The translations under genes were made by a program, and so were the position numbers. A stretch of 64,000 nucleotides of DNA, taken from NCBI GenBank assembly GCA_965207375.1, contig CBDBMG010000002.1:416001-480000 (forward strand), written 5' to 3'. The notes under the pieces are model-generated. The model made no database searches. It saw only the letters and a list, made by a program, of their open reading frames with translations, and was not told where the DNA came from. The stretch comes from Nitrosopumilaceae archaeon (GTDB taxonomy: Archaea; Thermoproteota; Nitrososphaeria; Nitrososphaerales; Nitrosopumilaceae). Below, in pieces: positions 5,391 to 51,175 of this stretch. Each line of letters starts with the position of its first letter. The first letter of the stretch is position 1.

Positions 5391-5421
5391 CATAGATAGT
5401 ACGGAGAATATACTATCTATG
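5391..5421. mobile_element. 31-bp P-element-like remnant, probably an excision footprint, in the RT
   Basis: CATAGATAGTA...TACTATCTATG flanked by GCATTGC/GCATAGC (7 bp, 1 mismatch); removing it restores DIRNAYRVVPVHP. Confidence 0.75.
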
Positions 5422-5766
5422 GCATAGCGTATGTCAATCTTAATTAGAAGTGCCCCAGTCCCGTAATTGACTATCCCTTGAGTTGCGTCCTCCACCGTAG
5501 CATAGGAAAGGGAACACATAGTCTCCTGTATTCCATCGTTAATGCTGCCCTCTTCTTGGGAGGACATGTCCACGATGAGCCTCCACTTTCCTGGGGTGCT
5601 CTTTGGTATTACCCGAGGTATTACCCCAAACCGGCTAATGTGCACAAATGGAAATTCCTCGATGCTTAATGGACCCACAACTCTGCCTGCTCTGTATTCT
5701 GATTCTTGGTACTGTGTGATGACTTGTGGGTTATCCATAGCTGATGTCATATTCCTTCTTTAAGAC

Positions 5767-6789: not shown

Positions 6790-7217
6790 ACCAACACTGA
6801 CATCTATAGTCGAAACCGACGCGAAATCCCTCCCGTATCCCATTAACAATATATTGTCGAAATTTTTGATCCAGATATGCACTCAGTCCTGTGTCCCATT
6901 CCTGTCATCTAAGGGGGGAGGTGTCTACCTGGAGGGATTGACTTAGACCAATAGGTTCTAACGGACGACATCTCTCTAGGTGGAGCAGATCCTCCATGTA
7001 TCGATATAAGCTTGAAAGGGGGCAATATGTCCCGTAAGTTCCATCCATGCATGCATCTGATCATATTCGCGAGGGAAGGCGCTCGGCTTACTGGGCCCGC
7101 TACTTCGGCTGTAGCTATTCCCTAAATCCCGCTTCCCATGAGATACATTATTAATCATAGATTAATGTTCAACAAACAAAACGAAAATTGTCCTATGGCC
7201 TGCTAGAATTATATGAT

Positions 7218-8183
7218 CTAACTGTAGCTATAGCTATACTGCTGCAGCTCAATAGGGTCTGTACTTGTGTGTGAGCCTTCCAGCTTGTTACGGTCCTCTG
7301 GGCTGGTGTCCATTTCGGGGGTAGGGGCCTGAGGAGTGGTTGTTAACATGCTGACGGCCCTGACGGGGGCAACGTGTCGCTGGATGTGGTCCTGCACAGA
7401 TGCTGCAGACGTGCGTGTGTCGACAGTACGGAATGTACACTCCTCTCTATTCCATTTATTACATACTTCCCCTGAGTGTCGGATGGGGCCTCGTGGGCGA
7501 GGAGTAACTTGTGTCAACTGTCGTTCCATGTTTTCAATGCGTCTCTCCAGTGAAATGTCCGGTGATAATCCTTCACTACAGTCCTGCGTCTCATGGGTAG
7601 CAGCCCCGAATACTCCACACCTCAATGGGTTTCGGGGAGCTCCGGTAAAACACCTGGCATAGCTTGTGGTGTTTATCACTGACCATTTGGTATCTCTCCT
7701 AAGAGCTGCATGTTTGCGAAACAATGTATCGTAGTTCAGCCAGGCCGTGCCTGCATACTCTTGGTTTACCCTCACAATCATAGACATGTAAGCCATGAAC
7801 TCCGGAATTACGGTTGGTGATTGCACTCCTCGGATACTAACATAAACCCCAAAACATTGGAGCCATGTAAATATGTCTACCACCCTTCTTCCACATCTCT
7901 TCTTATATTCCGCTTCTCCTTCTTCCTTTGGTGTCCACAACTCCGGGAGCAGCTCGCTCATCTCCACAAACTCTCCGGCCCTAATCTTCCTCACGAGCTT
8001 TGAAGGAACCCGGGGAAGGCCCTCCCCAATATACACTCCTTCAGTGGATGAACTTGCGTGGTCCCCCAGGGCTAAAGGTGAGTCCCCTGGAGCTGAAGGT
8101 GAGTCCACTGCTTGTGTGAGTAGTGTTGTTAGGTCCCTTCCATGTACCGGCTGGTCCGAGCCCGTTGGTGCGGCGAAGTGCAA
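7218..8183 (-). pseudogene. Ngaro gag-like ORF with C-terminal Cys/His knuckles
   Basis: WLQCFGVYVS...AYMSMIVRVNQEYAGTAWLNYDTLFRKHAA block typical of Ngaro ORF1; CNKWNREEC knuckle, frameshifted near the end. Confidence 0.75.
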
Positions 8184-9254
8184 CGGGACGTTACGAATGT
8201 CCTTCCCCGGGGGTAGTTTGTCCCCCGTGTTACCTGTAGCAACAAGATACTAGTAACCCTTCTTGCCTCACTATAGCTAGCTACGCATCCGCCGATGGTT
8301 TCTCGCGACACCCTTACATTACGCCAGACGAGCGACCCTGTCGAGAGCTCTCGGGGACGGCCTCGTGCTCGCGAGAACCGCATTCTCGCCTGACCCGGGG
8401 GTCCCAGCCATGTGGCCCGCTTCGCTTGAGTGTTTCCGCGAACGTGACAACACCATCACGGTGCGGGTGTTAGTTGGGCCTTCCCCTAGCAGGGGAAAAA
8501 AAGCCCGGTCATCTCAGCGACAGTGTCCCTGAGAGAAAAGACCGAAACCCTACCTGGACGAGATGTTCCGGGATCGTCTGCTTTCGCCTGTACTTCCCTC
8601 TGGGCTTCCGCTGCCTCCTTCATTAACTCCGCCACCGTGTCCGATCCCTCAGTTCTGAGAGTGGGACCACCCGATCGATGGGATCTTTCTGTTTGTCCTT
8701 GCTGGACGTTTCGCCACTCGGGGATGCCATTCACGTTTCCAGTTAGCTTCTACACTAAACTCGAAAGGCATGTGTTCGCACCTCTACTGCGCATTAAATT
8801 ATTACACGTGTCGTGTTTCTCCGTACTCGAGTCCAATAGATGCACCCCATGACCACAACTGGCTGTACGCGTGCGATGCATTTGTGAGCGAATTAACTTG
8901 GCTTAACCGTGCCTGTTAATCTTCACTTAATATCAGCTTATCGGTACAAAAATAAGTAAATAATCAGTTAACAGGAAATATGAATATACGCATATCAATG
9001 CAATAGATATGGCGAAATATAGGGGGAAGGATTTTTTAAAAATTATGTAGAAACCAGGTTTTGAAGGTTTTTAGCTAGTTAGCTAGTTAGCTAGCTATAT
9101 CTCACCATGCAACTTCAGCTGGAGCCAATAGCTAGTTTTACATTTTACTTTGCACTTAATTTGTCTGTACAAACAGATGGACTGATAAAAATATACAACA
9201 TAGGTACGTAACAGGCATGTACAACAATATAGGGTTTTTAAGTTTTCGTGGGTT

Positions 9255-11949
9255 TTAAAGTACCCATGCAAACAGAGTTTAGGTGATGGAATAGCATATG
9301 ATTTTCATGGTTTTTATGGTTTTTATGGTTTTCTAGTGTTTTAAGGTACCCAAGCAAACAGTTGCATGGTTAGATGATGGAATAGCATATGGTTTTTATG
9401 GTTATTATGGTTAGGTGATGGAATAGCATATGGTTTTAATGGTTTTTATGGTTTTTATGGTTTTCTGGGGTTTTAAAGTACCCAAGCAAACAGTTGCATG
9501 GTTAGGTGATGGAATAGCATATGGTTTTTATGGTTTTTATGGTTTTTATGGTTTTCTACTGTTTTAAGGTACCCAAGCAAACAGTTGCATGGTCAGGTGA
9601 TGGAATAGCATATGGTTTTAATGGTTTTTATGGTTTTTATGGTTTTCTGGGGTTTTAAAGTACCCAAGCAAACAGTTGCATGGTTAGGTGATGGAATAGC
9701 ATATGGTTTTTATGGTTTTAATGGTTTTTATGGTTTTCTAGTGTTTTAAGGTACCCAAGCAAACAGTTGCATGGTTAGATGATGGAATAGCATATGGTTT
9801 TAATGGTTTTTATGGTTTTCTAGTGTTTTAAGGTACCCAAGCAAACAGTTGCATGGTTAGATGATGGAATAGCATATGGTTTTTATGGTTATTATGGTTA
9901 GGTGATGGAATAGCATATGGTTTTAATGGTTTTTATGGTTTTTATGGTTTTCTGGGGTTTTAAAGTACCCAAGCAAAAGTTGCATGGTTAGGTGATGGAA
10001 TAGCATATGGTTTTAATGGTTTTTATGGTTTTTATTGTTTTCTACTGTTTAAAGGTACCCAAGCAAACAGTTGCATGGTTAGGTGATGGAATAGCTAGCA
10101 TATGGTTTTAATGGTTTTAATGGTTTTTATGGTTTTCTACTGTTTTAAGGTACCCAAGCAAACAGTTGCATGGTTAGGTGATGGAATAGCTTATGGTTTT
10201 AATGGTTTTCATGGTTTTTATGGTTTTCTACTGTTTTAAGGTACCCAAGCAAACAGTTGCATGGTTAGGTGATGGAATAGCTTATGGTTTTAATGGTTTT
10301 AATGGTTTTTATGGTTTTCTACTGTTTTAAGGTACCCAAGCAAACAGTTGCATGGTTAGGTGATGGAATAGCATATGGTTTTCATGGTTTTTATGGTTTT
10401 CTAGTGTTTTAAGGTACCCAAGCAAACAGTTGCATGGTTAGGTGATGGAATAGCATATGGTTTTAATGGTTTTTATGGTTTTCTACTGTTTTAAGGTACC
10501 CAAGCAAACAGTTGCATGGTTAGGTGATGGAATAGCTTATGGTTTTAATGGTTTTTATGGTTTTTATGGTTTTCTAGTGTTTTAAGGTACCCAAGCAAAC
10601 AGTTGCATGGTTAGATGATGGAATAGCATATGGTTTTTATGGTTATTATGGTTAGGTGATGGAATAGCATATGGTTTTAATGGTTTTTATGGTTTTTATG
10701 GTTTTCTACTGTTTTAAGGTACCCAAGCAAACAGTTGCATGGTTAGGTGATGGAATAGCATATGGTTTTAATGGTTTTTATGGTTTTCTAGTGTTTTAAG
10801 GTACCCAAGCAAACAGTTGCATGGTTAGATGATGGAATAGCATATGGTTTTAATGGTTTTTATGGTTTTCTAGTGTTTTAAGGTACCCAAGCAAACAGTT
10901 GCATGGTTAGATGATGGAATAGCATATGGTTTTTATGGTTATTATGGTTAGGTGATGGAATAGCATATGGTTTTAATGGTTTTTATGGTTTTTATGGTTT
11001 TCTGGGGTTTTAAAGTACCCAAGCAAACAGTTGCATGGTTAGGTGATGGAATAGCATATGGTTTTAATGGTTTTTATGGTTTTTATGGTTTTCTACTGTT
11101 TTAAGGTACCCAAGCAAACAGTTGCATGGTTAGGTGATGGAATAGCTAGCATATGGTTTTAATGGTTTTAATGGTTTTTATGGTTTTCTACTGTTTTAAG
11201 GTACCCAAGCAAACAGTTGCATGGTTAGGTGATGGAATAGCTTATGGTTTTAATGGTTTTCATGGTTTTATGGTTTTCTACTGTTTTAAGGTACCCAAGC
11301 AAACAGTTGCATGGTTAGGTGATGGAATAGCATATGGTTTTCATGGTTTTTATGGTTTTCTAGTGTTTTAAGGTACCCAAGCAAACAGTTGCATGGTTAG
11401 GTGATGGAATAGCTAGCATATGGTTTTAATGGTTTTAATGGTTTTTATGGTTTTCTACTGTTTTAATGTACCCAAGCAAACAGTTGCATGGTTAGGTGAT
11501 GGAATAGCTTATGGTTTTAATGGTTTTTATGGTTTTTATTGTTTTCTACTGTTTTAAGGTACCCAAGCAAACAGTTGCATGGTTAGGTGATGGAATAGCT
11601 TATGGTTTTAATGGTTTTTATGGTTTTTATGGTTTTCTACTGTTTTAAGGTTCCCAAGCAAACAGTTGCATGGTTAGTAGATGGAATAGCATATGGTTTT
11701 TATGGTTTTTATGGTTTTCTAGTGTTTTAAGGTACCCAAGCAAACAGTTGCATGGTTAGGTGATGGAATAGCATATGGTTTTAATGGTTTTTATGGTTTT
11801 TATGGTTTTCTAGTGTTTTAAGGTACCCAAGCAAACAGTTGCATAGTTAGGTGATGGAATAGCATATGGTTTTAATGGTTTTTATGGTTTTTATGGCTTT
11901 CTGGTGTTTTAAGGTACCCAAGCAAACAATTGCATGGTTAGGTGATGGA
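9255..11949 (+). repeat. Left subterminal tandem array, roughly 30 units of ~80-90 bp
   Basis: Unit AAGGTACCCAAGCAAACAGTTGCATGGTTAGGTGATGGAATAGCAT(ATGGTTTTW)2-3..CTACTGTTTT, with higher-order duplications. Confidence 0.97.
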
Positions 11950-12659
11950 TTTTATCGAAACATTCCCCCTATAATTTGCCACATATGGTCTGGGTGCGCT
12001 ACATTTCATAAGCGCTGAAATTATACTATCACGTAATCATGATGGTGTCTACATTAAACTCCAATATATGACCAGCGTCTGCGAACTGAATGGATGCACT
12101 ACAATCGATGTTAAAGGACAGAAAAGCAATAAAAGTGACACACACACGAGTAAATATAGAAAAGCGCGTTACTACCGGATCTATAGCTATACAAAGTGCG
12201 TCCGGTTACCGGACATATAGCCACTTCATTATTTAATTAGCTAAATACTATAGGAATTATAAGTTTTTAACCAATTAGCTAGTTATGTATGGACAGTATG
12301 GATTAAGGGAATGGGAGGTGGGTGCAACCAAGTACGTAGCATATAGCTATATCCTTGTTTCATAGCTATTAAGCTAATTATTTAATTTATCAGCTATAGC
12401 TATACCTGTATAATATTGCATGGGCCAGCAAAAATGGACCAATTAAGTGAGCACATGTAATTGATAATCATGTTTCTGTCTTGGTCTAAACACATTTCCC
12501 AGATTGCTAAGAAAGCTTAGTTAAAGCCTTCCTTCAGAACAACTTTAACTCCTGCCCAATACCTGTTAAAAGTCAGTTATAGCTATATATACAACTTTGG
12601 TAAGATAAATTTTAGAGTTCTGCTGTACTGTCTGGTCACCGCATACTGCTTCAGGCATA

Positions 12660-13112
12660 CAGTGTTTGGAAAGAGTTCAAAGAAATGCAGCCAGATAAAT
12701 TATGTCTTTGGGGATTACTGCCGATATCACAGTGTCACTGCTATGCTGGACAAACTACAATGGCAAACTCTAAATGATCGGAGACATTTTTAATAGCTGC
12801 TATGATGTACAAAATAGCTAGTTCATACTGAACTTAATTGCCATAGAAGCCTCCTCGTATACTTTATTCCAATTACCTCAGCCACCCGTGTTCACCAAAA
12901 ATGATATCTATAGCTATCTAGAATCAATGCATATTATTACTCCTTTTTTCCATCAGCTGTCAGAATATGGAATAGTTTGCCGGTGTGTTCAGTGACTGCT
13001 ATACTTCATTATAAAATTATAACAGATAGCACTAATGTAGACTTAATATTCTATAATTAGCTACTGTGCGTAATACTCTATTAGAGGTCTCCACAGTAAT
13101 AATAATAATAAC
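12660..13112 (+). mobile_element. 5'-truncated CR1/L2-group LINE 3' fragment
   Basis: Degenerate translation ERVQRNAAR...SVTAMLDKLQWQTL...YSFFPSAVRIWNSLP, followed by an (AAT)n tail at ~13098-13112. Confidence 0.75.
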
Positions 13113-13877
13113 ATAAAATTTGACAATGTTTTTCACAACTTACAGAATGTAAATCATTTAATGTGCTATATACAAACCAAGATACTTGATGTTTTGTGGT
13201 TATAACGTTAAGTGCATTTAAATTTTGTGCCCATGCACTTGGTCCATTTTCACTGGCCTGTTACTATTATATAGGATTAGATATACATACGTATGTATAT
13301 AACCAAGGTCACAATGCACTTCATAATAAAGATAGCTATGTAAGTATGGTTACTATGGTTACATAATACAGTTATTCAAATACCTGCATGAGTCCACTCC
13401 AGATACAGTAACAAATTTAAGTCTTGATACATAATCATAATAATAATAATAATACTATTGTGTTCTGACAGCCACATATAGGCTATATACATAGCTAATC
13501 AGTGTGTATAGTGTATAGTAAAATTAATACAGAATAAATATTAGCCAGAAGTTCTATCAATTAATCAATTTAGTCTTCAAATACATAGCTGACAATGAAA
13601 ATCCTTTTTAGCTGCCTTCTTCGTAACTTTTACACATCGCTGATGAAACCACTGATTACATCTCGTGCATTCTATCCACCATGTTCCCACTCGTTCTCTC
13701 TTTAGTGTGCACACTTGTTTGGGACACTTACGTATCTTTATTTCCTGTCCATTCCTTTGTTGTGCTTGCTAGTACTGGCACAGGCTTAATAATAGCAATG
13801 CTCTGTGATCTGAGGGATACAATATTGGTGTAGTCTGGATCATTATCTGCAAGTGGTCATGAAAGCACATAGGTAAA

Positions 13878-14342
13878 TGTGACTGTCTCTGCAAAAACCC
13901 TCCATGTTTGCATAAATATATTATGATGATATGCCTTTACAAAATAACTATAAATTCCAGATTGGGGATCCAACATGATTCCAAATAATGTATATAACTG
14001 CCAATTTTTGATTCACAGTCTTGCAAATTTTTGTATTTCTCCATATACTAATATTCACATGATATGGATTGGTAAATAGGAATCAATGAAATCAAATCAT
14101 AAATCAATAAATCAAGCCAAAATAAAAATGATTCCAAATCTCATACAAAAATCTATGGTGTCAGACCCCTCATTCCTGATACTTGCATCAGTTGTTAATT
14201 GCTCTGCATAAAATGTTTGTCACTAATATGCAAATTTTTGTAATGTTACAAGAAACTGTACCAGAGTTATGAAATTTTAAATTTCTAAAGATGGGCCAAA
14301 ATTTGCATGCTAACATGGAGGGTTTTTGCAGAACCAGTCACA
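13878..14342. mobile_element. TGTGAC-terminated MITE
   Basis: TGTGACTGTCTCTGCAAAAACCC / GGGTTTTTGCAGAACCAGTCACA; AA flanks. Confidence 0.75.
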
Positions 14343-14399
14343 AAAATGCATACTTGTATTTTAGCTATAGTTATACATATGTATAGTTATGTGCATGGT

Positions 14400-15075
14400 A
14401 CCATTTGAAATGTTTTCACTAGTAGAACATAGCACAACTGTGGATGCAGGTGGTAAAGGAACCGGAGAAATAGTTTTGTCCTTTGATGGTATCATGATAT
14501 CAGATAAATTAAGTGATATCGATGAACTGGAGGTCTCTAGCAGTGAGTCTTCATTGACTTGATCTGTGGATGCATACACAGGTATACAGGATGATCACTG
14601 ATGAATTGATACGTATGTGTAGCTACTTATGATTATAGAACTGAAACATACCACTTGAAATGTTTTCACATGTAGGAGGTGTCTCAACTAAAAAGGCAGG
14701 TGGTGGAGGAATCGGAGATATCATGATATCAGATAAATTAAGTGATGAATTGGAGGTCTCTAACAGTGGGTCTTCATTGACTTGATCTGTAGATGCATAT
14801 ACACACTGGTATAGAGGATAATCGTTGATGAATCGATATGTATATAATATATATGTGTGTGTGCTACTTATAATTATAAAACTGAAACATACCATTTGAA
14901 ATGTCTTCACATGTAGAAAGTGTCTCAACTATAGATGTGGGTTGTGAAGGAACTGGAGAATTTGTTTTTTCATTTGATGGTATCATGATATCAGATAAAT
15001 TAAGTGATGAACTGGAAGTCTCTAACAGTGGGTCTTGATCTGTAGATGCATGCAGAGAATATCTACTGATGTCTT
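14400..15075 (-). repeat. Three tandem copies of a ~230-bp exon-intron unit in the ATPase-PHD linker
   Basis: Repeated peptide DPLLETSxSSLNLSDIMI...TCENISxG, each copy followed by a GT donor. Confidence 0.85.
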
Positions 15076-18053
15076 GGTTATTTGTGTACGGATATACATA
15101 ACAAAGATGATGGCAGTAAATAGTTACTTATATAGACAAGCAAGAATGATACATTAATTTACCTGCAATCCATGGTGATGTTGATGACATAGGTGACAGG
15201 GATGGTGAAGATATAGGAGAATGGTCTGAAACTTTAAGATTCAAAAGTAAAATAGTGAATTCGTACATGTAGGTAGCTATATATGTATGTGTGTCTCTGC
15301 CATTCCTAAAGGATGGATGCAATGACACTGTTCTAAAGCCCTCTGAAAATGGAAAACAGAGGAAATGCATAACCATCCCTCACAAGGCTATCTCCACTGA
15401 TGTTATTAGAAAGTTGGTTGATAGAGGTAAGTCTGCTAGTGCTGCTATCCATATGCTTATACGTAAATATACATACATAAGCCCAGATATTGCCCCCAAC
15501 TTCTTTAACAGCTTTCTTAAATTTAGTTTCATCCAAGGTGGAACAATAAGTCCTGATCATTGGTAAATATATGGCCACTGATCATGATGCACATGCTTGA
15601 TTGGTTTTATTGAGAACTTCAGGACGAAGAAATCTTAGTATCTGTCAAACATTTTAAAGCTATAATTATACATACATTGTATAAGATAAAAAATTAATAC
15701 CTCACAAACTTCTAAATCTTCAGTATCATATAGCAATTGCTCAAGAACACACTCTATTGTGTTGTGAGTGCACTGTAGCAAACTGGTGACTTCTGGGGCC
15801 CATTTTTCCAAGAAAAATCTTTTTATCATAGTGAATGTTGTTACCTCTGGTAGTGCAATGATATTGCACAGCTGTAAGTGTATTCAAAAATTATAACACA
15901 ATTGCAGAATCAATTTTCAAATTTTACTCACCTCCTTACCAATTCCTAACAAAAGGGCATAGCTCTTTTGAATTCTAAAATCAGCATCTGGCAATGCGTC
16001 ATATACCAGAGGTAACAAATCTTCATTAATACACTTTTGGAATTCTTCACTCATGATTGTTTCACCTGCTTGTTTCAGCAACTCTTCCTTTTCTCGTTGG
16101 TTTACTGCAACCTGTCCCTTGAAAAAAGGGACATGTATTAGTCGTGCTGCATTCCTAAAAGACATGTATACACAAAATTATGGGTCAACTGTTTTCAGAA
16201 CACATGCTGTATGAACATACCTGGAACTTTCAGCAAATGCTTTGTTCGCAGTCAATATAATCGTTGTACGTGGACAGTTGCTTCCTCCACTCACTGTGGA
16301 TAGTGCTGCTCCATTGAAAAATTGTACTGACAAAGCTTCAATGTTGTTTAGACTGTTAATGTCATCTACCCCAATTGGTATGGTCGTAATTGATGCTCGT
16401 GCAACCAAGGAATTTGGTGATGATTTCCCCACTCGGAAATGTGCAGCTGCTGCTCCACACAGGCTCAATGCTGCCCGGAGTGATGTTGTCTTTCCTGCAA
16501 ATATATAATTTCAAATTACCCAACTGTATTAATTGCCTATGTAGATAATACAACTATGGCCAGCTGTTAGTAACTAACCAGTTCCGGGAGTTTCACTGTA
16601 TGCTAGTACCAGCGGACATTCGTCTTGTATTGACATAATTGTCTCAAAGTGCATAGCCATGCATACTCCACTAATGATCTGATAAAAGCTTAGAAAATTC
16701 TGTTGCAGGCATTCATTGGCTGCGATCATAAGATTCTGGATACCCTAAAACATGACAAGTGATACTATTATTATTGCTCTACAGTACTATTAGCTAGCTA
16801 TATACGTAGCTACTTAATTGTATACAAATAATATGAAGCTAGTAGAAGAACTGAAAATCAATACACGTGCACCATGGATGATAGTGTTTAACCTACGTAC
16901 CATGATTGGTAATTATTGACTCTGCATATGTACTTACATACCTGAATCTGCAGTGGTAGAATAATTGGTAATGGAGCAAGCTTTGTATCATCAGTAACAT
17001 CTTTTCGTAACTGGTATTCACCATACCAATAAAATGGAAAATCTTTGTTGTCTAGTAGCTCTCCCTTGCTGTCGATCTGAATATCTGGTCCCAGCACCCA
17101 CACATCACTTTTTAGTTGCCTGCCTATAGCAGAAACCAGAGTTTTGTTATTAAAACTAGCACTGGTTCGAAAATCGCTGCACTCTTGGAAAATGTATCGT
17201 CCCCATAATGCATCGCTGCATTTAACATGTTGCACTCCTTTTAAAGATTTGCTTGCAGCTTTAGTAAAACTGCGAATAGTGCAAGCTTCGTCATTAGTGA
17301 TGAAGCATTCCCTGTGGGAAAAATATAATTATTTAAATGTGTTGCAATTATACCCATGCAGTACACCTATCACTTTAAGGTCTAGTGTAACCAATCAAAC
17401 TTGCATGATGCATTTTTAGAGCCAACACAAGGCAACAACAAGAGATCTAGTTATAGCTGTTAGATGATTAACTATTGATATAATTATGTACTGCTGGTAT
17501 AAGCTCTGAAGATCAAAGAAAAATTGCTCATGACACAAATGAAAATATTTTTCACTTTGGTATTCTATTGATCACACCTATATATGTGTATCCAGTGAAC
17601 TCTGGCAATCAAAGGAAATTGCTCTAACGCCTTATCATCAACGGTAAAATGTACAATTGATCACACTTGCATTTGGGACTCAATCACCTAAAATGAATTG
17701 AAAAAATGGTCGCAGCTTGACTGCATTGGAGTTTAAGAAGCTCAGGATGGGTAAACAAGTCACCCGCATCATTGCACGGCTGACATGCATGCATTGATGG
17801 ATCAAATCAAATCAAAATTGCCACATGCATCTAGTATATAGCTACGTAAATTAGCGAACTCACTTTTCTACTCCAGAGGTCATTGTTATTTTGTACAGAA
17901 ATCCATCTAATTGCATACAGGTTTCTTCCGGCGAGGATACAGCACTAACCACTTGAAAGCAAAGTTAGTGTACTGCAAAAACTCTCCTCTTTTGATCTCT
18001 CCAATTTGTCTATTAACAGTAACTAGTGACCTATGAGCAGCTGTTCGAGGCAT

Positions 18054-18228
18054 TGTCTGAAGATTTCAATCTAGGCTCAACTCTTTCGCTGTGATGCAGT
18101 TCTCAGACTACTACGCACCATTTAGTTTTCTCTCAACGTGCAAACCAAAGCGCGCGCATGCGTACGTAAACGTGGTTACACAGAGAAAATCCGGCTCAGC
18201 TAATGCGATAATTTTTACTCAGTTTAAA
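18054..18228. promoter_or_regulatory. Putative bidirectional promoter
   Basis: 175 bp between divergent ATGs (18053 minus, 18229 plus); central CpG-rich GCGCGCGCATGCGT (18150-18163) resembles the NRF-1 palindrome. Confidence 0.55.
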
Positions 18229-19720
18229 ATGCCACGTGGCAAGAAACGAAGGTTGGCAGCGGCATTAGATAGTTTATGTGATGCAAATCGTAGTTCAGGG
18301 GATGCCTTAGTAGAAGAAGATATTGTTGATACTACTCGAGATGTTACCTTCACGCCCCCGGTGAGCCAGGATGAAGATTTCGAGCCGCAATTGGAAGTGA
18401 CCGAAATGCATTGTGATCTAAGATGGGTAACAGTTTTGACTGCACAGGCACTAAACTTAGTACCGACATCTTTTTTGTCGCGACGCCAACATTATATCAC
18501 CAACATTGTCAGTCATTGCATAAAAAAGGATTTTACTTCAGAATAAATGGCTGTATTAATACAGAGCGCTGAAGGAGTTTTTGAGAATATCACTTATCTC
18601 CAAACGCCTAAGAGTGAATTATTATGGAAAGTAACTTTTGCTACTCAGGTGCCTCATAGCTACTGCATTTTTGGGACCTCCTACTACATTATGTTTAGAA
18701 TGCAGTGGAAATCTTTCAATTCATAATGATCCTTCTTCAGTTGTTGTATTTGGATTCCATGGACCAACTCCTGCTCTTAAAATCACTCTTAGATGTGATA
18801 CTCGTATGATTAACTACAGGTAAAATAGTTCGGTATAAATTATAGCTAGTTAGTTAGTTATATAGAGCTATCTGTATGTATCTATTACTACAGATATGAT
18901 CAGTATGGTGGAGATATTAAAGGTGGATACTGTTATTATGATAGCCCAAGACCATATGTGAAAGCATCACGCAGTGTATTCATTTGTAGAGATCTTTATT
19001 GCAACTTGGCAGCTGCTGCGTATGTTGTATTACTATTAATCAGTTATATTATCAATAAACATTGTAGCCATCATACTTGGAGTTCTTTTGAAGGTGCTGC
19101 AGAAAGCTACAATGAAGGAGTTAGGGAGTCATTGACTGGGTCACTGCTTTTAAATTATACAAAGAGATTCTTTACTATGTGTCCCCTGAGAAATGGTAAG
19201 TATAGCTATGTAGAAGTACATGCACATAACCAGTACTATTACATGTGTATACTAGTTAACACTGCATCCATCAACTGTGATGAATCCACTGACATGAATA
19301 TGATTACTCATGAACTTCATCGTAAATCTGTAGCAGAAGCATTCTGGAATGCTGAAATAGAAGATGAATTACGAGAGATAGGTCAAATTGGATACATATT
19401 TTCATCAGTGGATTCAAGAGAGAAGCTAATGGATTCCATTGATGAAGAGAGGGCTAAACGTCCTTATGCACACAATGACTGCACAGATGAGTGTAAGAAA
19501 AGAGGTGAGTCTGCAGATCAAGATCATATAGATATACAGCTATTACTCACTTCATAGTTAGCTAGACAACCTAGCTACTGCTCCTGTTTGTTTGAACACT
19601 TTTCAAACATCAATAGAAAAATAGAACGAGTTCATAAACAGTTCTGTCACTGCATTGAACATGCATGCAGCTATATGGTTTAACTAAGTTCAAGAGAATC
19701 GATCTTCACACTTATATAAT

Positions 19721-20363
19721 TGTGATTAGATTTGACAAAAGCCAGCTTCCACACACATAACAGCAAGACACACTAGCTTTGCACCATCAAACAATAGCTG
19801 TACACATTAACTAACAGTTCAGACAGATTTTGGTTCTGAAAGTTATATAATTACCCAGGCTGCTTTTGCTGAGGTTTGTTTCTTAGCCTTGTCAGATGTC
19901 CACGAGTACTTGGGTGGTTATTAAATGGCTCCATCTTCCCTGCACAAGCAGACAGCTGGCTGTATATCGCCATACAATGGCCTGGTAAGGTTGCTCATGG
20001 ATTTAGCTGCTTTGTGTAATATGTAGAGCTGAAAATGGCATCGATTGAAGCCAAATTGTTTCCATTTGGTTTTTCAGTTTTAGCCTGCCACTTCATGGCT
20101 CCCTGCCCACTCATAGGAGTGCTATAGTGATATTGGCTAGCTACACCAGTAATAAAACTATCTAAAATGGTGCATGGGTTATTATATTCCTAGTTATATC
20201 CGTTCAACAGTTAGTCCATAGATATAGATTATGAATAGCTATAGAATCGTGGCAAATTGCCTGCAAGCACCTGTTTTCCTTTACAAGATATAATGCTTCG
20301 AATAGGTGTTTCTAAATATTTATAATTGTGTGTGGAAGCCAGCTTCTCTCAAATCCAGTCACA
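19721..20363. mobile_element. TGTGAC-class MITE
   Basis: Imperfect ~35-bp TIR ending GTCACA; AT flanks. Confidence 0.7.
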
Positions 20364-20971
20364 ATTGTGCTTTAATTTTGAGTACGTATGTCACTGGCAA
20401 GGGATGCAGAACCATGCAGGTGGCTATATCTAGGAAGGCTGGAGCTCCTTATATTTGAAATACAGGTACATACCCTTGCATGAACAGGGAGTGCTATTGG
20501 TATGTTTATAATCACTGCATCATACAATTACGTACCTCAGCTTAATATTAGCTATAGTTACAGCCATGAATGCTTGTATGCATGCACTTGAGCCTCAAAG
20601 TTATGAACTATACAGATACATACGTAGCTATTAGCTGCTCAGTAAAAGCAGACCCATCAACTTTCGGCAGTGGTACTCTGGTAATCAGTTAGTTTATTGA
20701 TGGAGTGTAGCTGTAGCTACAAAAACTATTCTTACCCATTATGTGCATATGTGGTGGCTTTTGGCAAATCTGGTCACATAAATGTACAAGGTTTACTTCT
20801 GAATCACATGTCACTGAATAGTTCAAGGGGTTATCAACTCTTAAATGGGTTATAGATTTCAAAATTTCACTGATAATTAAGAATTTCATTGCTCACATTG
20901 CATTCCTAGATGTTCCTTTTGCATTTCTTCATAAATGCTACATAGCCTTTTGAATATAAGTACATGCATGC

Positions 20972-22106
<1,135 letters not shown>

Positions 22107-22122
22107 TATATATATATATACA

Positions 22123-23043
22123 CTAGAATAATAAAAAATTAAAAATTTAAAAAGTAAGTAGGGATTGAACTTTGGATTCAATAGTGCTACAAAAAGTAAG
22201 GAAACAAGGAATAAGATTTTGGGATGAGAGAACATTCTGGCATGAGATAATTTATAAAAGTTTAATCCCTATTTTTGGCTCACTTCATTCAGTAGGTTTG
22301 CCAAAAGTAGGGATTAAACTTTTATAAATTATCTCATGCCAGAATGTTCTCTCGTCCCAAAATCTTATTCCTTGTTTCCTTACTTTTTGTAGCACTATTG
22401 AATCCAAAGTTCAATCCCTACTTACTTTTTAAATTTTTAATTTTTTATCATTCTAGTTTGTTAACTTTTTATACATGCTAAGCATTCAATAATCTTTTAG
22501 CAGGCGCACAAAATGTTACAGGCGCTTACGTAATAATTATGCTTGTTTACAGGCGCTTGTTAACAATGCGCTGACATGGCAAAGCAGCTGTATGATAGCA
22601 AATAACACTCGAAAAACAGCAAAAGCTATTTGTCCAAGGCTATAATCTCGAAGTTCACGATGTAATAAAGTACACGCGAAAACATCGTGCCACTGTAACT
22701 AATTATATCACGTGCAAGCCAGGTTTTTGTGTGACGCAATAAGCAGAAGCCGTTACAGGCTATCGTCACCTTCGGTGAAATTCGCACCTTGCTAAGGAAT
22801 AAAGAAGAACAAGGAAAGGAATGAAGGATAAAGGGAATCGCCATGGCGCAGTGGGTAAATCGTCTTCGGAATAAGATTTTCGTAAATCCGCCGCCATTAC
22901 CTTTATTGTGTGAAATTTCTGGAGCCCTACACCTAGCGCAACCCGGTCTTACGGCAGGCTGGCTGTCAGGCTGGCAGGCTGTCAGACGAAATACAATTGA
23001 ATTTCGAAATTTTCAAAGTTGGCTGAAATTTTCAAAGTTGGCT
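22123..23043 (-). mobile_element. Family A copy 2, inverted and 5'-truncated
   Basis: Reverse complement of ~21190-22106, separated from copy 1 by a (TA)n spacer. Confidence 0.8.
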
Positions 23044-23733
23044 ATATATATATATATATGATATTATATGCATATAATTATTATAGGTACATGTTAAGCC
23101 ATCAAGTTATAATTATTAAAAATAATGTGATCACTTCTCATACAGGATGTGGGCATTTATATTCTTTTGATGGAAATCGGAAGCTAGTCTATCCTGTGTG
23201 CATGTTTAGAGTCCCTAAAGAAGTGACAGGTTTTGCCCATCATCTACGCTATGTTGATACTTGTCCTAATGAACCTGTGTGTGGCCATGCATTCTGTGAA
23301 GTGCATTGTAATGAAGCTGAAGAAAAGAAAATTCCAACAAAATTACGTGACTACCTGAGATACTGTGGCATTTTGAAAGGTACGTACGTAGCTAGCTATA
23401 TATTATAAATGATAGCTATTAGCTCATTGCATTTACCTACTTGTAGCTACGTACATAGCTACATATGTATTATGTAATAACATATAGCTAGCACCAATGT
23501 TACAATGTTTTATTCACAGCTTAGCTACAGTACAGTGTATAGCTTACTACGTAGCTTTCCACCAGATTTCTGTAATCAGTGCACCACTAGCTTCATCTAG
23601 GCAGCCTACTTTCAAAGATAAAAATTTTGAGGATTTTGGGGGACGTTTACAGGACCTCAAAAATATCTTCAAAATTGTAGGATCAGCTAGTCCTAGCTAG
23701 CTATATTGTTTACCACTCGCTTATTCTCGTATA

Positions 23734-24367
23734 TGTGACTGGATTTGCCAAAACCCGACATAATGTCGCAAGAACTGAAATCCAATTTATAGCTTAACAT
23801 GAAAGCCACAACTCGAGCTCCGGCACTATCCAGACACACCAATGACAGGGCTACAGATGGCCAGGTCTGCTTTCACAGGCAGGATTTTGCTGGCCCTGTA
23901 AATGAATGACGGTCCACTACAGGGTACATGGTGCCATTGGGGGGCACTAATAAGGCTGTATGGGGTGTCAAACTGCTGCCAGTGACCGTCTTGGCCTGAC
24001 ATGTTGACTGTGCATGGCTGTTTCTGTGTTTATTGAAGGCACAACGATCCTGTCTCTGTTCCTATGGATGGTATGGTCCGCCTTCTGCTCCCCACCCACC
24101 CCCATCGCCACCCCCTATAAACTAAATCCATGATATTGGTGGAGTTCAAAAAAATTGTCTCAAAATCCAGCAGTATTAGCTAGCTATATATAGGTGGTTG
24201 AATTAGTTATAAAGCACTAGCTATAAGATTACTCTACTTATGCTGTGAGTCAGCTGGCGTCTATGCAGTCAGGCATCAAGGAGCTACAGTAGCTTGAATA
24301 TTTCAAAGTGGTATTTCTCGAAATATGAAATATGCAGTTATGTTGGGTTTTTGCAAATCAGGTCACA
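23734..24367. mobile_element. TGTGAC-terminated MITE
   Basis: TGTGACTGGATTTGCCAAAACCC / GGGTTTTTGCAAATCAGGTCACA; TA flanks. Confidence 0.75.
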
Positions 24368-25037
24368 TATTTCTTATCGATCCTTTATACAATAGTCATG
24401 TGTATATATAATAAATTGTATTAATTATGTATATAATTGATCACACATTATGGTTTACTAACATATATATAGATCCAGACTGTGACTCAAGTGCTAATCA
24501 TGAAGATTTAAGTAAGCTTACAGCTGCTGAAGAAAACATGAGTAATAATGATGGAGCAAGAAATGCTTCAGATTGTCAAGGTTGAAAACCTTAAAATCTG
24601 TATTGACATGACAGTATTGTGTGATATATAAAGTTTGTGCTACAATAATCATCCTCCAATTAAGTAACGTATCATACATAACTGGAAAAATGTGACTGTC
24701 TGCAAAATACTCCAAATTTGCACTTGCTGTACTTCAAAAATATCATACTGAAAGAGAAAATGTCTCACATAGGTAGCTAGCTAGAAGTGGGGCAATAAAA
24801 CAAATTTCAATTTGTGTGAGAGCATGTATAGTATGGCTGAGCCAGTCACATATTATGCTATTCATTGCGTTGGCAGTAAAATTACTGTAGCTATAATATA
24901 GCTATAAGCACTGAAATTGGAGATGCATGCATGCATGGTGTTGATAATGAAGTTTTTGCATGACATACTTTAGCAGTTTATATTATGCAGGATAAGGATA
25001 TATTTCAGCATTGAAAAATTCACTAAATTACGTTATA

Positions 25038-25627
25038 TGTGACCGTCTCTGCGAAAACCGGCCTAGTTCACACCTGATAGTAATTAGAGAAACACCTGTT
25101 TAAAATTTTTAAATTGAAATAACCAGCTCTTGCTCGTACTAGGCCACTTTTATTTAGTAGAACTGGACTTAGTAATCTATTGAATAAAATACAATTTACC
25201 TTTGAAGTTGTTCCTCGCTTGATTTTAAGCCTTTTCAGATGATTTTTTTAAAGATGTGCATCAATTTTAGCCCAGCATTACAAGGGGGCGGGTGAGGGCG
25301 GGGGGTGGGGAGGGAGGAGGCTAAAGCTCCCCAGGTGAAGACACAAGGTCCTGAGTTGCCCACAGATGGTCCTGACCATACAACCAGGCCGAAGGGACAT
25401 CATTCCGATTCTAGGCCGATAACATCCAATTGGTACGCTCCACAGGTGTCAATGTGTCGGTCATGATTTTACAGCGCTGTAAATCCTCCCCTCCAAAAAG
25501 CAGACCACTTGAGTCTGGCCATCGGAGACGTGCTGTGTGGATAGCTATTGAGTATAGCTATAAGCTGGGGCAAAAAATAAATTAAATTTTTGTGCGAACT
25601 AGGCTGGTTTTTGCAGAGACAGTCACA
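25038..25627. mobile_element. TGTGAC-terminated MITE
   Basis: ~33-bp TIR TGTGACCGTCTCTGCGAAAACCGGCCTAGTTC; TA flanks. Confidence 0.8.
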
Positions 25628-26660
25628 TATTAATTGGATGCAATACATGTATATAATTGTATTATATGTAAGACACGAGTGGGTACATCATAACTAGGAC
25701 ATGTTATATCATCAATATTTTACTACATTTTTAAATAATTATTAGGTACATTATCAGTAATCACATCATACCCACAACTGGGTGCAGAACTAGATAAACA
25801 AAGTGAACTAGATTTTGTGCCAGAGTGCAACAAGGACACTGGCACTAGAAAGCGGATACAGAAATGGAGTCGCGGGCATTTCTTTATCGTTCGTGGAGGT
25901 GGACATATAGATATGTGGCAGCCATTATATCAGTATGTAGCTAATACTTAAATAGTTCCTTTATAGCTTGTGATCTGAGTATAGTAGCTATGTAGTAATA
26001 TTGCAAAGTTCCAGGCAGCCTATATAATTATACGTAGTTAGCTATAGATAGCTACCACTTTGCATTTAGATTTGTGGTAATTAATTAAATGATACCATTT
26101 CTACAAATATAGCTAGTAGCTAAGTAGCAATTGTTTATAGGCTTACAATGCATGTGTACAGTTTGTAGATGGATCTGTATATGTATAGCTACCGCCCTGA
26201 AGTACACATATGTACATGTGTATAATAAATGCATGCTCATGCCTCTGTAAGTTGCAATATATAAAAATTGTTGCATTGTGATCTCAAACAACTGCTCCAC
26301 ACACCAGATTTCTGAACATACGTAGCTATCTAATATGATTGTAGAAGCAATAACTGCATGTGTTTTCTGATACAACCTTAACAATACATGGTGTGTCAGT
26401 AATCATAGTACCTATCTATTTTCACAAAGAAAAATTCACTGAGTATATAGCTATGTTGCTTCATATTTTCAAACTTCTGAGCACAATTATTAGCTATTTG
26501 TTAATTATATAACTCAAGGATAAAAAATTCGAGGATTTTGTGGATGTTTGTATAGCCTCAGTAATATTCTATCCTCAAAATTGTAAGATCAACTAGCTAG
26601 TCCTACTGCTTATACCACTTACTCATTGTTGAAACTTTATCTCTAATAATCCTCAAAATT

Positions 26661-26908
26661 TGTGACCAGAATTTGGAAAATGGTTCCAAATCACACACTT
26701 TTCAGTATATTTATCACTACCACATGAAAAGTATTGCATTCTCAATAATATTTCATAGCACTAGATGGAATTCAATGGTCAAATTACTGAAAGAATGTAA
26801 GAAATACTCTGTAAATACATACACATAAGTAGAAATATCATTAAATACATGCAGAAATACACTGGATTTCATGCATGGTTTGGAACTGTTTTCCAAAATT
26901 CTGTCACA
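26661..26908. mobile_element. TGTGAC-terminated MITE
   Basis: TGTGACCAGAATTTGGAAAATGGTTCCAAA / TTTGGAACTGTTTTCCAAAATTCTGTCACA; TT flanks. Confidence 0.75.
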
Positions 26909-28460
26909 TTTTATATTCTCGAAAACAAGTTGCCCTACGGTGTTTCACCATTTACAACTATTATCAATGCATTTATTATGAACACACACCATATAAGTGA
27001 ATCCCACTCAATATCTGCATCAATTATATACCTAAAACCATACCAGTGTTATAGCACTAAGTGCATGTTACAAGATCATGTGACTGGATCATATGACTAG
27101 ATTTTATCAAAATGTAGCTATAGGGATAACTTTTGCGGTTTTGCTATATAACCTATAGTTTTGCCAAAGAAAAACAAAGCAGCTATTCTAGGAAAAACTT
27201 TCACATTTTATTGAAAATCTGCAAAAACCACAAAAGTTTTAATTTGTACTGCGAAACTTTTGTCATTTATGGTGTGATGATCTAGTAGTATAAAATTAAT
27301 AACTTATCAGTATAACCAAGAGCTACGTATATTAACACTATTTTGTTTCATCTAGATCTGAAGGGCCTGCACAGGTATTTTTGATAATCCTTGCATGGAT
27401 GGTTGCAGCATTGGGAAAACTTTCCAGGGATGAACGAAAGAAGATCACTGTATCCTATGACAATATGTGCCACATTGACTCCCTGCATGTAGCCAGAAGA
27501 CCTCTGCCTCTACCTGGAAACTTAAGTCATCTTTGGTTAGATGTGAACAAAATAATCGATTCTTTACACATTAGAAATCACCGAGACAAAAAGTGCCATG
27601 AAAAATATCACCCAAGTCAAGTTAAAGACAGCAATGAAACTTACAATACCATGAGTTGCGAACAGACGTTTGCCTGGATTTCCAGGTTTAAAAAGATAGT
27701 CTGTTCCATGGGAAAGAGGCATCATCATTTCTACCTTCACAGAATGGTGAAGCGAAGAAATAAATATATAGCATTTTGCTATAAGCATAACAAGAACCCA
27801 GTACAACCAAAACTACATTAATATAGCTAATTATGTGCTGACTAAGATATACATGTGTACTAGTTATAATCAAACATGTTAATCATCATACTCATATGAT
27901 TGATTATCTATTTGTGGCTAGGTAATTAATGTGCTAGTTAATGTTTTCATGAATATTGGTATACTATAGCTACGTATGCCGTGAAATAAAATCTTAAAAA
28001 TGCATGTGTATATGTACATGTGTGAGTGCATAGAAAATATTAATACAGGTGTATGTACAATATACTTTTTATATCCTGTTGAAACACATATGATACATTA
28101 TAGCTATACAACTAACTAGCCTATGACTAAATTTATAATTATCGTGTATGTAGCTAGTTCCAATTGCCATATTCACACTTTCAAGCAGGCACAAGGCTGT
28201 ATGGAATGATCTTTGAATCATCTAAGTGTACCTGAAAGCTAACGTTGATACTGCATGGGCAGCCAAGCTTGCAATTGGTGAGGTGTCATCTAGACTGAAC
28301 TGGTCATTTGTCACCATATCATATCAGTGTGTATCAGCCTTAAATAACTACCAGCTAATGCTAAAGTATGATAGTGGAAAGATTGACTTATTTTGATGAT
28401 TGTATGGCTGTTGATTCATCAAACTGTTCTCATCATTATATAGTAATGCAATACATACTT

Positions 28461-29015
28461 ACTGTATGCTTGGGTACCTTAAAACAGTAGAAAACCATAA
28501 AAACCATAAAAACCATTAAAACCATATGCTATTCCATCACCTGACCATGCAACTGTTTGCTTGGGTACCTTAAAACAGTAGAAAACCATAAAAACCATAA
28601 AAACCATAAAAACCATATGCTATTCCATCACCTAACCATGCAACTGTTTGCTTGGGTACTTTAAAACCCCAGAAAACCATAAAAACCATAAAAACCATTA
28701 AAACCATATGCTATTCCATCACCTAACCATAATAACCATAAAAACCATATGCTATTCCATCATCTAACCATGCAACTGTTTGCTTGGGTACCTTAAAACA
28801 CTAGAAAACCATAAAAACCATAAAAACCATTAAAACCATATGCTATTCCATCACCTAACCATAATAACCATAAAAGCCATATGCTATTCCATCATCTAAC
28901 CATGCAACTGTTTGCTTGGGTACCTTAAAACACTAGAAAACCATAAAAACCATAAAAACCATGAAAACCATATGCTATTCCATCACCTAAACTCTGTTTG
29001 CATGGGTACTTTAAA
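28461..29015 (-). repeat. Right subterminal tandem array (inverted copy, ~5-6 units)
   Basis: Reverse complement of the same unit, including the rare GGTCAGG and CTGGGG variants found in the outermost left units. Confidence 0.97.
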
Positions 29016-29685
29016 ACCCACGAAAACTTAAAAACCCTATATTGTTGTACATGCCTGTTACGTACCTATGTTGTATATTTTTATCAGTCCATCTGTTTGT
29101 ACAGACAAATTAAGTGCAAAGTAAAATGTAAAACTAGCTATTGGCTCCAGCTGAAGTTGCATGGTGAGATATAGCTAGCTAACTAGCTAACTAGCTAAAA
29201 ACCTTCAAAACCTGGTTCCTCAAATACTTTTCAATGCCTATTATGCCCAAAATTATGCTGGCATAATCGGGACATCCCTACTACTTGCATCATGTATGGT
29301 CCAACTTTAAATTCATAATATTGGATGTGCAGATAAGATCTGTTTGTGCAGGCCCAGTCAACTTTCTACTTGTAATGTATGTACGTAGCTATATATATAG
29401 TACGGGATATTTAATATTAGCTAATGAATGGAAATGCACATCCTGAACACAACGTAGCTATGTTAGTTGGGTTATTATTCAAAATTAATGAGTCCAAAAT
29501 GCCTTGGCCATATTAGCTACACATGTACAATGCTGCTTATGATAACATGGTACACAGGATAGCTATAATTATGCACTGTTAAATGTTCTAGTTTGATATG
29601 ACTACTATGCAATTTTGTACATCATACCGTCATGTTGTACAAGTGAATGGATTTAGAGCATAATAACTGCCAGATATACGTAATA

Positions 29686-50539: not shown

Positions 50540-51175
<636 letters not shown>

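Follow-up and report, generated by a model that had tools for sequence, protein, structure and literature searches.

A 20,166-bp element at positions 9052-29217 of the window (the whole 64,000-nucleotide (nt) stretch analysed here, positions 416,001 to 480,000 of contig CBDBMG010000002.1 in assembly GCA_965207375.1, Nitrosopumilaceae archaeon) is probably the dead copy of a giant sponge transposon of the Kyakuja-Dileera-Zisupton (KDZ) lineage with a conserved second gene, which encodes a predicted helicase-type ATPase ending in a PHD finger (helicase-PHD). Inverted repeats bound the element at both borders, and between them two intron-bearing genes diverge outwards from a short spacer. One encodes a KDZ transposase. 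The other encodes helicase-PHD, and the modelled fold of its homolog in the sponge Amphimedon queenslandica finds its best structural match in Cch, a helicase of the staphylococcal cassette chromosome mec (SCCmec). The two genes are very likely neighbours in Amphimedon as well, and distant paralogs of the helicase on the same group of contigs stand beside a transposase of another family.

Two divergent genes between near-identical ends

At each end of the element, some 180 bp of unique inverted repeat lead into an array built of 91/132-nt units (Table 1). A repeat finder returned inverted arms at 9035-9544 and 28725-29234 (510 nt, 97% complementary), and in a direct reading of the ends the inverted match begins at 9052 and 29217. 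A blastn comparison of the two 600-nt ends aligned 493 nt without gaps and with 7 mismatches (98.58% identity); the outermost 200 positions are identical (200/200). The terminal inverted repeats (TIRs) expected of KDZ transposons are therefore present, 493 nt long and 98.6% identical, at exactly the coordinates given in an earlier note on this DNA that had been made from the sequence alone.

The same note had proposed that the TIRs enclose exactly two spliced genes, transcribed divergently from a 175-bp gap, and that this copy is inactive with at least one lesion in each gene. Both proposals hold. The minus-strand helicase-PHD gene starts with an ATG at 18053-18051 and the plus-strand transposase gene with an ATG at 18229. 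The exons of both align piecewise to full-length homologs (tblastn), and the only other content of the interior is nested repeats in the introns of the transposase gene, including two inverted copies of a ~1.1-kb repeat that is frequent in the same contigs. With two lesions in each gene, the window copy is dead.

The KDZ transposase gene

The last exon of the plus-strand gene (27336-27821) matches the Pfam KDZ family (PF18758) at 35.9 bits (E 8.1e-9, cut-off 26.6), and a six-frame Pfam KDZ search of the assembly recovers the same locus at 34 bits. For comparison, the KDZ domain of the homolog P0082 scores 27.9 bits. The earlier note had read CxC5 and CxC6 motifs in this gene in addition to KDZ. 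The first of these stands by way of the homologs: CxC5 scores 17.9 bits on the window exon, under its cut-off of 26.9, in a region starting at 18662, and the homologs aligned to that region score 70.9 bits (P0082) and 46.2 bits (P0086); a cysteine cluster of this kind is a mark of the KDZ superfamily. The second does not stand, as Pfam gave no CxC6 match in any of six proteins (E<=0.01) or in the window exons (E<=1).

Thirteen KDZ homologs were found at E<=0.001. Over the last exon, the window protein is 87-88% identical to proteins of Dysidea avara (P0081/P0095), 65% identical to those of A. queenslandica (P0082/P0122), and 56% and 51% identical to those of Patiria miniata and Oculina patagonica, respectively. 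The motif YDNMCH is invariant in the KDZ alignment (A2) and E599/Q600 are nearly so, and the window copy keeps FDGNRKL, YDNMCH and CEQTF. The catalytic residues are presumably among the conserved acidic positions; an AlphaFold2 model of a KDZ homolog has a mean predicted local distance difference test score (pLDDT) of 46.4, too poor for catalytic geometry. In D. avara, the named proteins of the two closest KDZ clusters come from seven different chromosome-scale records, which fits a dispersed mobile family.

The helicase-PHD gene

The helicase-PHD protein is predicted to open with an N-terminal domain, followed by a P-loop core and a helical C-terminal region; a repeat-rich stretch then leads to the PHD finger at the end. 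In our gene model, one exon between 17949 and 17325 is left unplaced. An intron interrupts the Walker A motif (..ETPGTG / KTTSL). In a 12-sequence alignment (A1), K224 is invariant and G223, D266, D267, N306 and R314 are conserved in >=90% of sequences, and all of these residues are present in the window exon. These columns, together with a PHD finger that scores above its cut-off, bear out the Walker A and B, sensor, arginine-finger-like and terminal PHD motifs that had been listed in the earlier note. Many database fragments start and stop at the borders of the window P-loop exon, so the intron positions are common to the helicase family.

The Amphimedon homolog P0011 (XP_019860089.1, 864 aa) has the same layout, with the N-domain and P-loop followed by a PHD finger (Pfam, 33.1 bits), and the window ATPase is about 30-35% identical to it over the aligned stretches. 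An all-against-all HMMER comparison of a representative library gave 77 helicase relatives at E<=0.001. A word-based search with the P-loop exon returned no relatives, and metagenome scans returned none either with the single exon (0 of 594 pattern matches) or with a tighter alignment (0 of 169). Helicase-PHD genes stand in sponge genomes as ordinary uncharacterised genes.

One of the two helicase lesions is a stop codon in frame. The other is a small local inversion that has left an exon facing the donor of the preceding exon. Between the ATPase and PHD portions, positions 14364-15127 (minus strand) are made of tandem units of ~250 nt that code for Ser/Asp/Leu-rich repeats; in the same place the Amphimedon protein carries acidic repeats of 22 aa that are unrelated to them. 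The repeat-rich linker thus seems to be kept in position and not in sequence.

The modelled fold points to a ring helicase

Fold evidence was obtained from the AlphaFold2 model of the Amphimedon homolog P0011, not from the spliced window protein. The mean pLDDT of this model over its 864 residues is 54.5, a low value because the repeat region is disordered; across residues 111-430, blocks of 10 residues average 76-95 with the exception of three (48, 66 and 57). In a Foldseek search of the PDB with this model, Cch (5dgk_A) came first (E 1.3e-12, probability 1.00, 482 columns). It was followed by monkeypox virus (MPXV) E5 (7.6e-5), NrS-1 (8.5e-5) and the primase-helicase of the staphylococcal pathogenicity island (SaPI) SaPI5 (6.7e-4); the primase-helicase of African swine fever virus (ASFV) also appears, and clamp loaders only from E ~1e-3. 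Against BFVD, 37 matches were found at E<=0.001, with phage Toprim/DUF927 primase-helicases on top (4.8e-15) and a D5 primase/helicase of an algal virus among them (E 9.9e-6). The nearest clusters in the ESM Atlas are bacterial DUF927 proteins (score 0.97). Sequence profiles give the same direction: compared with PDB sequences, the family profile matches 5dgk_A (SCCmec Cch, an active helicase) at E 0.002 and 8tch_A (a staphylococcal pathogenicity-island protein) at E 0.0024.

Together these matches suggest that the ATPase is a relative of the Cch/D5-like ring helicases of superfamily 3 (SF3) type that lacks a primase domain, with a Cch-like fold predicted across its N-domain, ATPase and C-domain. 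The matches to Cch, SaPI5, NrS-1 and E5 agree with the earlier proposal of an SF3-like P-loop ATPase partner in a KDZ-type element. That proposal had left two functions side by side, a targeting or regulatory subunit like MuB, TnsC or IstB and a replicative helicase, and the fold evidence favours the second.

The regulator deserves consideration all the same. Two-gene units of transposase and ATPase act in this way in Mu, Tn7 and IS21, a PHD finger would suit the choice of target sites on chromatin, and generic AAA+ clamp loaders do enter the Foldseek list at E ~1e-3. The ATPase would then be a MuB/TnsC/IstB-like AAA+ switch, and not a helicase; it would bind target DNA or the transposase and govern target choice or immunity. 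The Foldseek list of PDB matches names no MuB, TnsC or IstB, however, and Pfam scans at E<=1 or E<=0.01 gave no family of IstB type. Cch is instead the best match by at least seven orders of magnitude, ahead of D5/E5, NrS-1 and SaPI5 primase-helicases, and its 482-column alignment spans N- and C-terminal domains beyond the P-loop. We consider a regulator of this type unlikely.

Helicase genes accompany two families of transposase

The counts that follow depend on what DNA the assembly holds. Open reading frames (ORFs) of at least 200 aa cover 72% of contig C1 (2.16 Mb) and 9-15% of contigs C2-C4 (2.14 Mb in all, with the window on C3); C1 looks bacterial-like and C2-C4 look eukaryotic-like. 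C2-C4 carry sponge-like spliced genes and eukaryotic transposons, and the assembly is listed as 99.95% complete. Matches to the nested-insertion repeats all lie on C2-C4, with none on C1 (blastn). The assembly is a mixture, in which host contigs seem to sit inside a prokaryote-type record, and the window is eukaryotic DNA rich in transposable elements and with spliced genes. Counts 'in the assembly' of eukaryotic genes and elements refer to the ~2.14 Mb of animal sequence on C2-C4.

In Amphimedon, the helicase-PHD protein XP_019860089.1 (eukprot P019670) and the CxC5/KDZ protein XP_019860093.1 (eukprot P019674) are each placed on a 15,821-bp record (gene ids of the pair, LOC109588352 and LOC105314963). 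Their accession numbers are four apart, with helicase isoforms between them (P0078 is isoform X3, P0011 isoform X8). Because the record lengths are equal and the accessions neighbouring, the two genes are very likely neighbours on one small scaffold. The Amphimedon adjacency and the 175-bp head-to-head start in the window support the view that the helicase and KDZ genes form one unit, and their pairing looks conserved.

A helicase profile search of the assembly gave six matches at three loci, which tblastn also finds, and all three loci adjoin a transposase gene. At two of them, C3:529-534 kb and C4:876-890 kb, the helicase is a distant paralog with ~26% identity to the window helicase and the transposase is a different, non-KDZ protein, which has the motifs DHTFKV, DDCC and DxFH, OTU and CXC domains, and weak ISL3/MULE signals (Pfam ISL3 at E 0.051, and the ESM Atlas). 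A hidden KDZ transposase was considered for these loci and rejected, as an hhalign comparison of the KDZ profile with the DDE ORF returned a probability of 0.19%.

The C4 locus is a second two-gene element (C4:876493-890065, 13,573 bp) with 115-bp TIRs (98%), a TTTGAC duplication and inverted arrays of 9-nt period in both arms, and it sits between two pieces of a hAT transposase gene. Excision of the element in silico did not lengthen the hAT ORF, which stayed at 327 aa at every duplication length tried, so the case for insertion rests on the TTTGAC duplication and the flanking hAT pieces. The C3 locus (C3:526186-536498) is a diverged relative of the C4 element. Its helicase gene (minus strand) and OTU-bearing transposase gene (plus strand) stand head to head ~850 bp apart, the reading frame of the helicase is broken, and the one TGGTT-type array lies on the right. 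A third copy of the OTU transposase lies at C4:157000-169300, in an inverted segmental duplicate (95-99% identity) of C4:874-893 kb from which a 9.4-kb deletion has taken the helicase, one array and the 5' part of the hAT gene.

The earlier note had held that ATPase homologs standing apart from KDZ genes would count against the pairing. Homologs of that kind exist in part: two of the three helicase loci lie away from KDZ, and both are beside a different transposase in repeat-bounded units. Paralogs with a non-KDZ transposase widen the idea and do not refute it.

The arrays of both elements share a phased word

The arrays and ends of the KDZ element have no blastn match elsewhere in the assembly, including the arrays of the second element. 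The arrays of both elements nevertheless carry ATGGTT(T/C)T words that are phased at 9 nt, strand-specific and inward-reading from each end. ATGGTT occurs 139 times in the left and 28 times in the right arm of the KDZ element and 64 and 91 times in the arms of the other element; on the opposite strand it occurs 0 times in all four arms, and the assembly average is 0.8 per kb counting both strands.

Windows of 500 nt with >=15 occurrences of TGGTT are found at seven places in the assembly, namely both arms of the KDZ element, both arms of the second element, the duplicate, the C3 locus (on its right side) and a solo array. The solo array (C4:759300-760000) is of the second element's 9-nt-period type, with 86% identity to the array at C3:535 kb. 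No match to the helicase or a transposase lies in the 20 kb to its left or right, and it could be a relic or a non-autonomous element. Because the helicase is common to both elements and the transposases differ, we propose that the ATGGTT word may be a binding site of the helicase.

Evidence against the reading and alternative explanations

Several observations weigh against reading the element as a KDZ transposon with a helicase partner. No flanking target-site duplication (TSD) was found: no direct repeat of 4-10 nt abuts both 9052 and 29217. Searches of the assembly by blastn and tblastn brought up no further copy of TIR, array or gene, so the element is present once in a small sample (2.14 Mb of eukaryotic contigs). 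The TIRs are near-identical, whereas the genes between them have four lesions and the introns hold nested insertions. On the side of the helicase, Pfam DUF927 (PF06048, cut-off 22.6) stays below threshold in the window exon (16.6 bits), in P0011 (20.3) and in P0030 (21.9), and the superposition of the P0011 model on Cch is modest (TM-scores 0.30/0.46, root mean square deviation 11). The Amphimedon adjacency is deduced from record length and accession numbers and not from DNA. The shared ATGGTT motif was noticed post hoc; by our own estimate, the dominant hexamers would overlap by chance a few percent of the time. Finally, the helicase accompanies one of the five KDZ loci in the assembly, so it is no general requirement of KDZ elements.

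Pfam gave no DUF927 match in the other relatives scanned, P0079 and P0078 included, and P0079 is called a DUF927 domain-containing protein in one UniRef record. Because near-identical ends coexist with four lesions and nested insertions, we suggest that the dead copy moved in trans, or else that its arms were homogenised. Trans movement of dead copies is described for the giant KDZ elements of Ectocarpus in the part of PMC12477816 consulted here. With neither a TSD nor a second copy found, the mobility of the window copy is inferred and not shown. The 52 nt to the right of the element (29219-29270) belong to a small palindromic repeat with a further copy at C4:511510-511560 (90% identity); the element may have inserted into a small repeat of another kind or next to one.

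The lack of a TSD, the single copy in the sample and the very high arm identity beside decayed genes would also fit a local inverted duplication of a satellite-bearing segment around two old mobile-element genes, with no transposon involved. Segmental duplicates do exist elsewhere in these contigs: the duplicate at C4:157000-169300 and two KDZ loci with identical scores (C3:225-226 kb and C4:26-27 kb) point to segments that are duplicated or haplotype-like. We nonetheless regard such a duplication as very improbable here. The arms stop matching abruptly at 9052 and 29217, the interval contains a transposase gene, and the layout of ends and subterminal arrays recurs in the second element, which has a TSD. 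Arrays without such genes were met once, as the solo array of the other type.

A further alternative leaves the transposon in place and makes helicase-PHD mere cargo, a host or foreign gene that one KDZ lineage captured and that plays no part in movement; it might, for example, help against silencing or do nothing. Accessory genes are frequent in KDZ elements (PMC12477816) and include TET/JBP genes in fungi (PMC12730594), as far as the consulted parts of these articles go, and PHD fingers are typical of chromatin proteins. The assembly itself supplies four KDZ loci with no helicase nearby, which the six-frame Pfam search placed at C4:626-631, C3:92-99, C3:223-228 and C4:24-29 kb, with scores over or near the cut-off; they are of a different KDZ type. 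Because of these four loci, we assign the helicase to the CxC5 KDZ lineage and not to KDZ elements generally. Against a role as cargo, the pairing recurs in Amphimedon despite an ATPase identity of only ~30-35%, and all three helicase loci adjoin transposase genes, which belong to two unrelated families. Moreover, every DUF927/Cch-type match that was found belongs to mobile elements or phages, and the 175-bp head-to-head arrangement suggests co-regulation. We think it improbable that the gene is a passenger, and keep to a KDZ-lineage transposon with a conserved helicase-PHD gene.

A possible role for the helicase

To our knowledge, eukaryotic cut-and-paste transposons depend on host factors for everything but the breakage and joining carried out by the transposase. 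If the element is a KDZ-helicase transposon, a role of the helicase in replication or in opening the ends is a real possibility, though one we would stop short of calling probable. On such a model, the KDZ transposase would bind the ends and move the element by cut and paste. The helicase would act on the element's own DNA, probably loading at the repeat arrays as SaPI Rep and SCCmec Cch2 do at iterons, and would then either enable copying of the excised or gapped element or open the DNA at its ends. The PHD finger could tether the helicase to histone H3 tails, and the 175-bp spacer would drive both genes.

A broader scheme can be drawn from the two elements, which we offer as speculation and think rather doubtful. 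Sponges, and perhaps other marine animals, might harbour a modular class of replicative DDE transposons in which a DUF927/Cch-type helicase loads itself on 9-nt-phased ATGGTT iterons in both arms and the excised or gapped element is copied, a course that has been proposed for SCCmec and shown for SaPIs in bacteria. The module of helicase and array would have been joined at least twice to unrelated transposases, once to KDZ and once to the MULE/ISL3-like OTU-bearing protein (two loci), and the PHD finger, as a coupling to chromatin, would have been gained in the KDZ lineage.

A transposase gene that is paired with a ring helicase of phage/plasmid type would mean that some animal transposons bring along part of a machine for replication or DNA opening, as SCCmec and SaPIs do. 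This would give a cut-and-paste element a route to gain in copy number, and one helicase module would serve two transposases that are unrelated. Through the PHD finger, the handling of transposon DNA may be tied directly to histone marks. Recognising helicase-PHD genes as transposon genes would also correct sponge annotations.

Relation to known systems

MuB, TnsC and IstB resemble the present case in that one mobile unit holds genes for a P-loop ATPase and, next to it, a DDE transposase. They differ in fold, which here is predicted to be that of an SF3/Cch ring helicase, consistent with the absence of their names from the Foldseek matches and of IstB-type families from the Pfam scans. AcademH and Helitron are likewise eukaryotic DNA transposons that code for a helicase, which is of the SF2 (RecQ-like) type in AcademH and the SF1 (Pif1-like) type in Helitron, whereas the matches here are of SF3/D5/Cch type and the transposase is of another family. 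Polinton-like viruses, virophages and transpovirons are eukaryote-associated elements with an SF3 (D5-like) helicase. These have rve-type integrases or none, together with capsid or polymerase genes; the element in the window has two genes only, one of them a KDZ transposase.

Fish Zisupton elements carry SWIM, SAP and Ulp1 domains. The founding papers on KDZ and Zisupton elements are those of Iyer et al. 2014 and Boehne et al. 2012. The window element shares with KDZ transposons, as the consulted parts of PMC12477816 and PMC12730594 present them, the Pfam KDZ domain, CxC5 (in its homologs), TIRs, a giant size (20 kb), introns, nested insertions and an accessory gene. KDZ elements are described there as giant and often equipped with accessory genes (PMC12477816), which in fungi encode TET/JBP dioxygenases (PMC12730594). 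Here the accessory gene differs, as it encodes a putative SF3-like DUF927/Cch-type helicase-PHD. Zisupton makes 8-bp TSDs according to the same part of PMC12730594, and none was found here.

SCCmec Cch (5dgk) and SaPI Rep provide the best structure and profile matches, and are helicases of integrative elements that lie beside a recombinase. Their hosts are bacteria, the recombinases beside them are serine or tyrosine enzymes, and they lack a PHD finger. In the window the host is an animal, the enzyme a DDE transposase and the genes contain introns, and the DUF927 signal is below threshold. According to the part of PMC7581432 that we used, Cch contains DUF927 and is a relative of the SaPI Rep initiator helicases, which load themselves and bind iterons at an origin; SCC elements, which recombinases move, are for this reason believed to replicate.

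No description of a KDZ transposase paired with helicase-PHD was found in the portions consulted of the literature on KDZ/Zisupton, DUF927 and SF3 helicases (including PMC12730594, PMC12477816, PMC5718144, PMC7581432 and 10.1101/2022.05.23.493040), with Repbase, Dfam and supplements lying outside the search, so that a prior description is possible. Judged by titles, the literature on DUF927 with transposons is all bacterial. By title or the start of the abstract, no article on superfamily 3 helicases in eukaryotic DNA transposons deals with KDZ.

Feature coordinates and neighbouring sequence

Table 1 Features of the element, in window positions
Feature	Position	Strand	Basis or remark
Left TIR, unique terminal part	9052..9232	.	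Inverted match runs on through array to ~9544
Left subterminal array, 91/132-nt units	9233..11949	+	Period 91, 28.9 copies
Helicase-PHD gene (pseudogene)	13577..18053	-	tblastn of P0011, P0079; ORFs; conserved exon borders
Helicase coding pieces (approximate)	18053-17949; 17325-16951; 16744-16580; 16492-16220; 16152-15930; 15860-15689; 15644-15474; inverted exon; repeat-rich 15127-14364; PHD 13768-13580	-	tblastn
PHD-finger exon, last coding exon	13580..13768	-	Pfam PHD 27.5 bits (cut-off 24); aligns to PHD of P0011
Helicase lesion, inverted exon SLPFLKD...KLVDR with GTAAGT donor	15294..15428	+	46% to P0011 510-551; 63% to P0079 468-486
Helicase lesion, in-frame TGA	15582..15584	-	Alignments to two homologs pass through the stop
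P-loop core exon: KTTSL (Walker A Lys), GVDDI (Walker B), LTAN (sensor-1 N), Arg at exon end	16220..16492	-	ORFs, alignment
Spacer between the two start codons	18054..18228	.	175 bp; bidirectional promoter role presumed
KDZ transposase gene (pseudogene)	18229..27821	+	tblastn of P0082, P0086, P0081, P0093, P0095, P0122; Pfam KDZ
KDZ coding pieces (approximate)	18229-18800; 18877-19010; 19060-19125; 19300-19506; 23145-23378; 24448-24582; 25745-25933; 27354-27818 + stop codon	+	tblastn
KDZ lesion, in-frame TAA in exon 1	18544..18546	+	Opposite Q in CEQVAEL of Dysidea P0095
KDZ lesion, frameshift	near 18658	+	Frame changes between VPH and TAFLGPP; no room for intron; homologs read through
Nested insertion in KDZ intron	20951..23028	.	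Two inverted copies of ~1.1-kb repeat; up to 93 overlapping matches elsewhere
Nested ~600-bp repeat in KDZ intron	25025..25635	.	Up to 22 overlapping matches elsewhere
Nested repeat in KDZ intron	26654..26909	.	blastn
Right subterminal array, same units inverted	28461..29036	-	Periods 91 and 132
Right TIR, unique terminal part	29037..29217	.	Repeat finder, end reading, blastn

An Rfam scan of the window matched no family. To the left of the element lies a GC-richer block (3424-8249, minus strand; 46-50% GC against ~35-38%) with long open frames that have no Pfam match, among them a 343-aa frame at 7218-8249 directly left of the element; the block is possibly another retroelement. On the other side, 3 kb to the right of the element, a 755-aa open frame (32340-34607, minus strand) matches DUF4371 at 75.9 bits and the hAT dimerisation domain at 34 bits, and is seemingly an intact hAT-type transposase gene. 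Positions 38883-42393 (plus strand) code in four adjoining frames for the parts of a long terminal repeat (LTR) retrotransposon: zinc knuckle, aspartic protease, reverse transcriptase, RNase H and integrase. At 50542-51111 lies a (TG)n microsatellite with 289 copies, which is unrelated to the element's arrays and accounts for the GC-skew peak at 50-52 kb.

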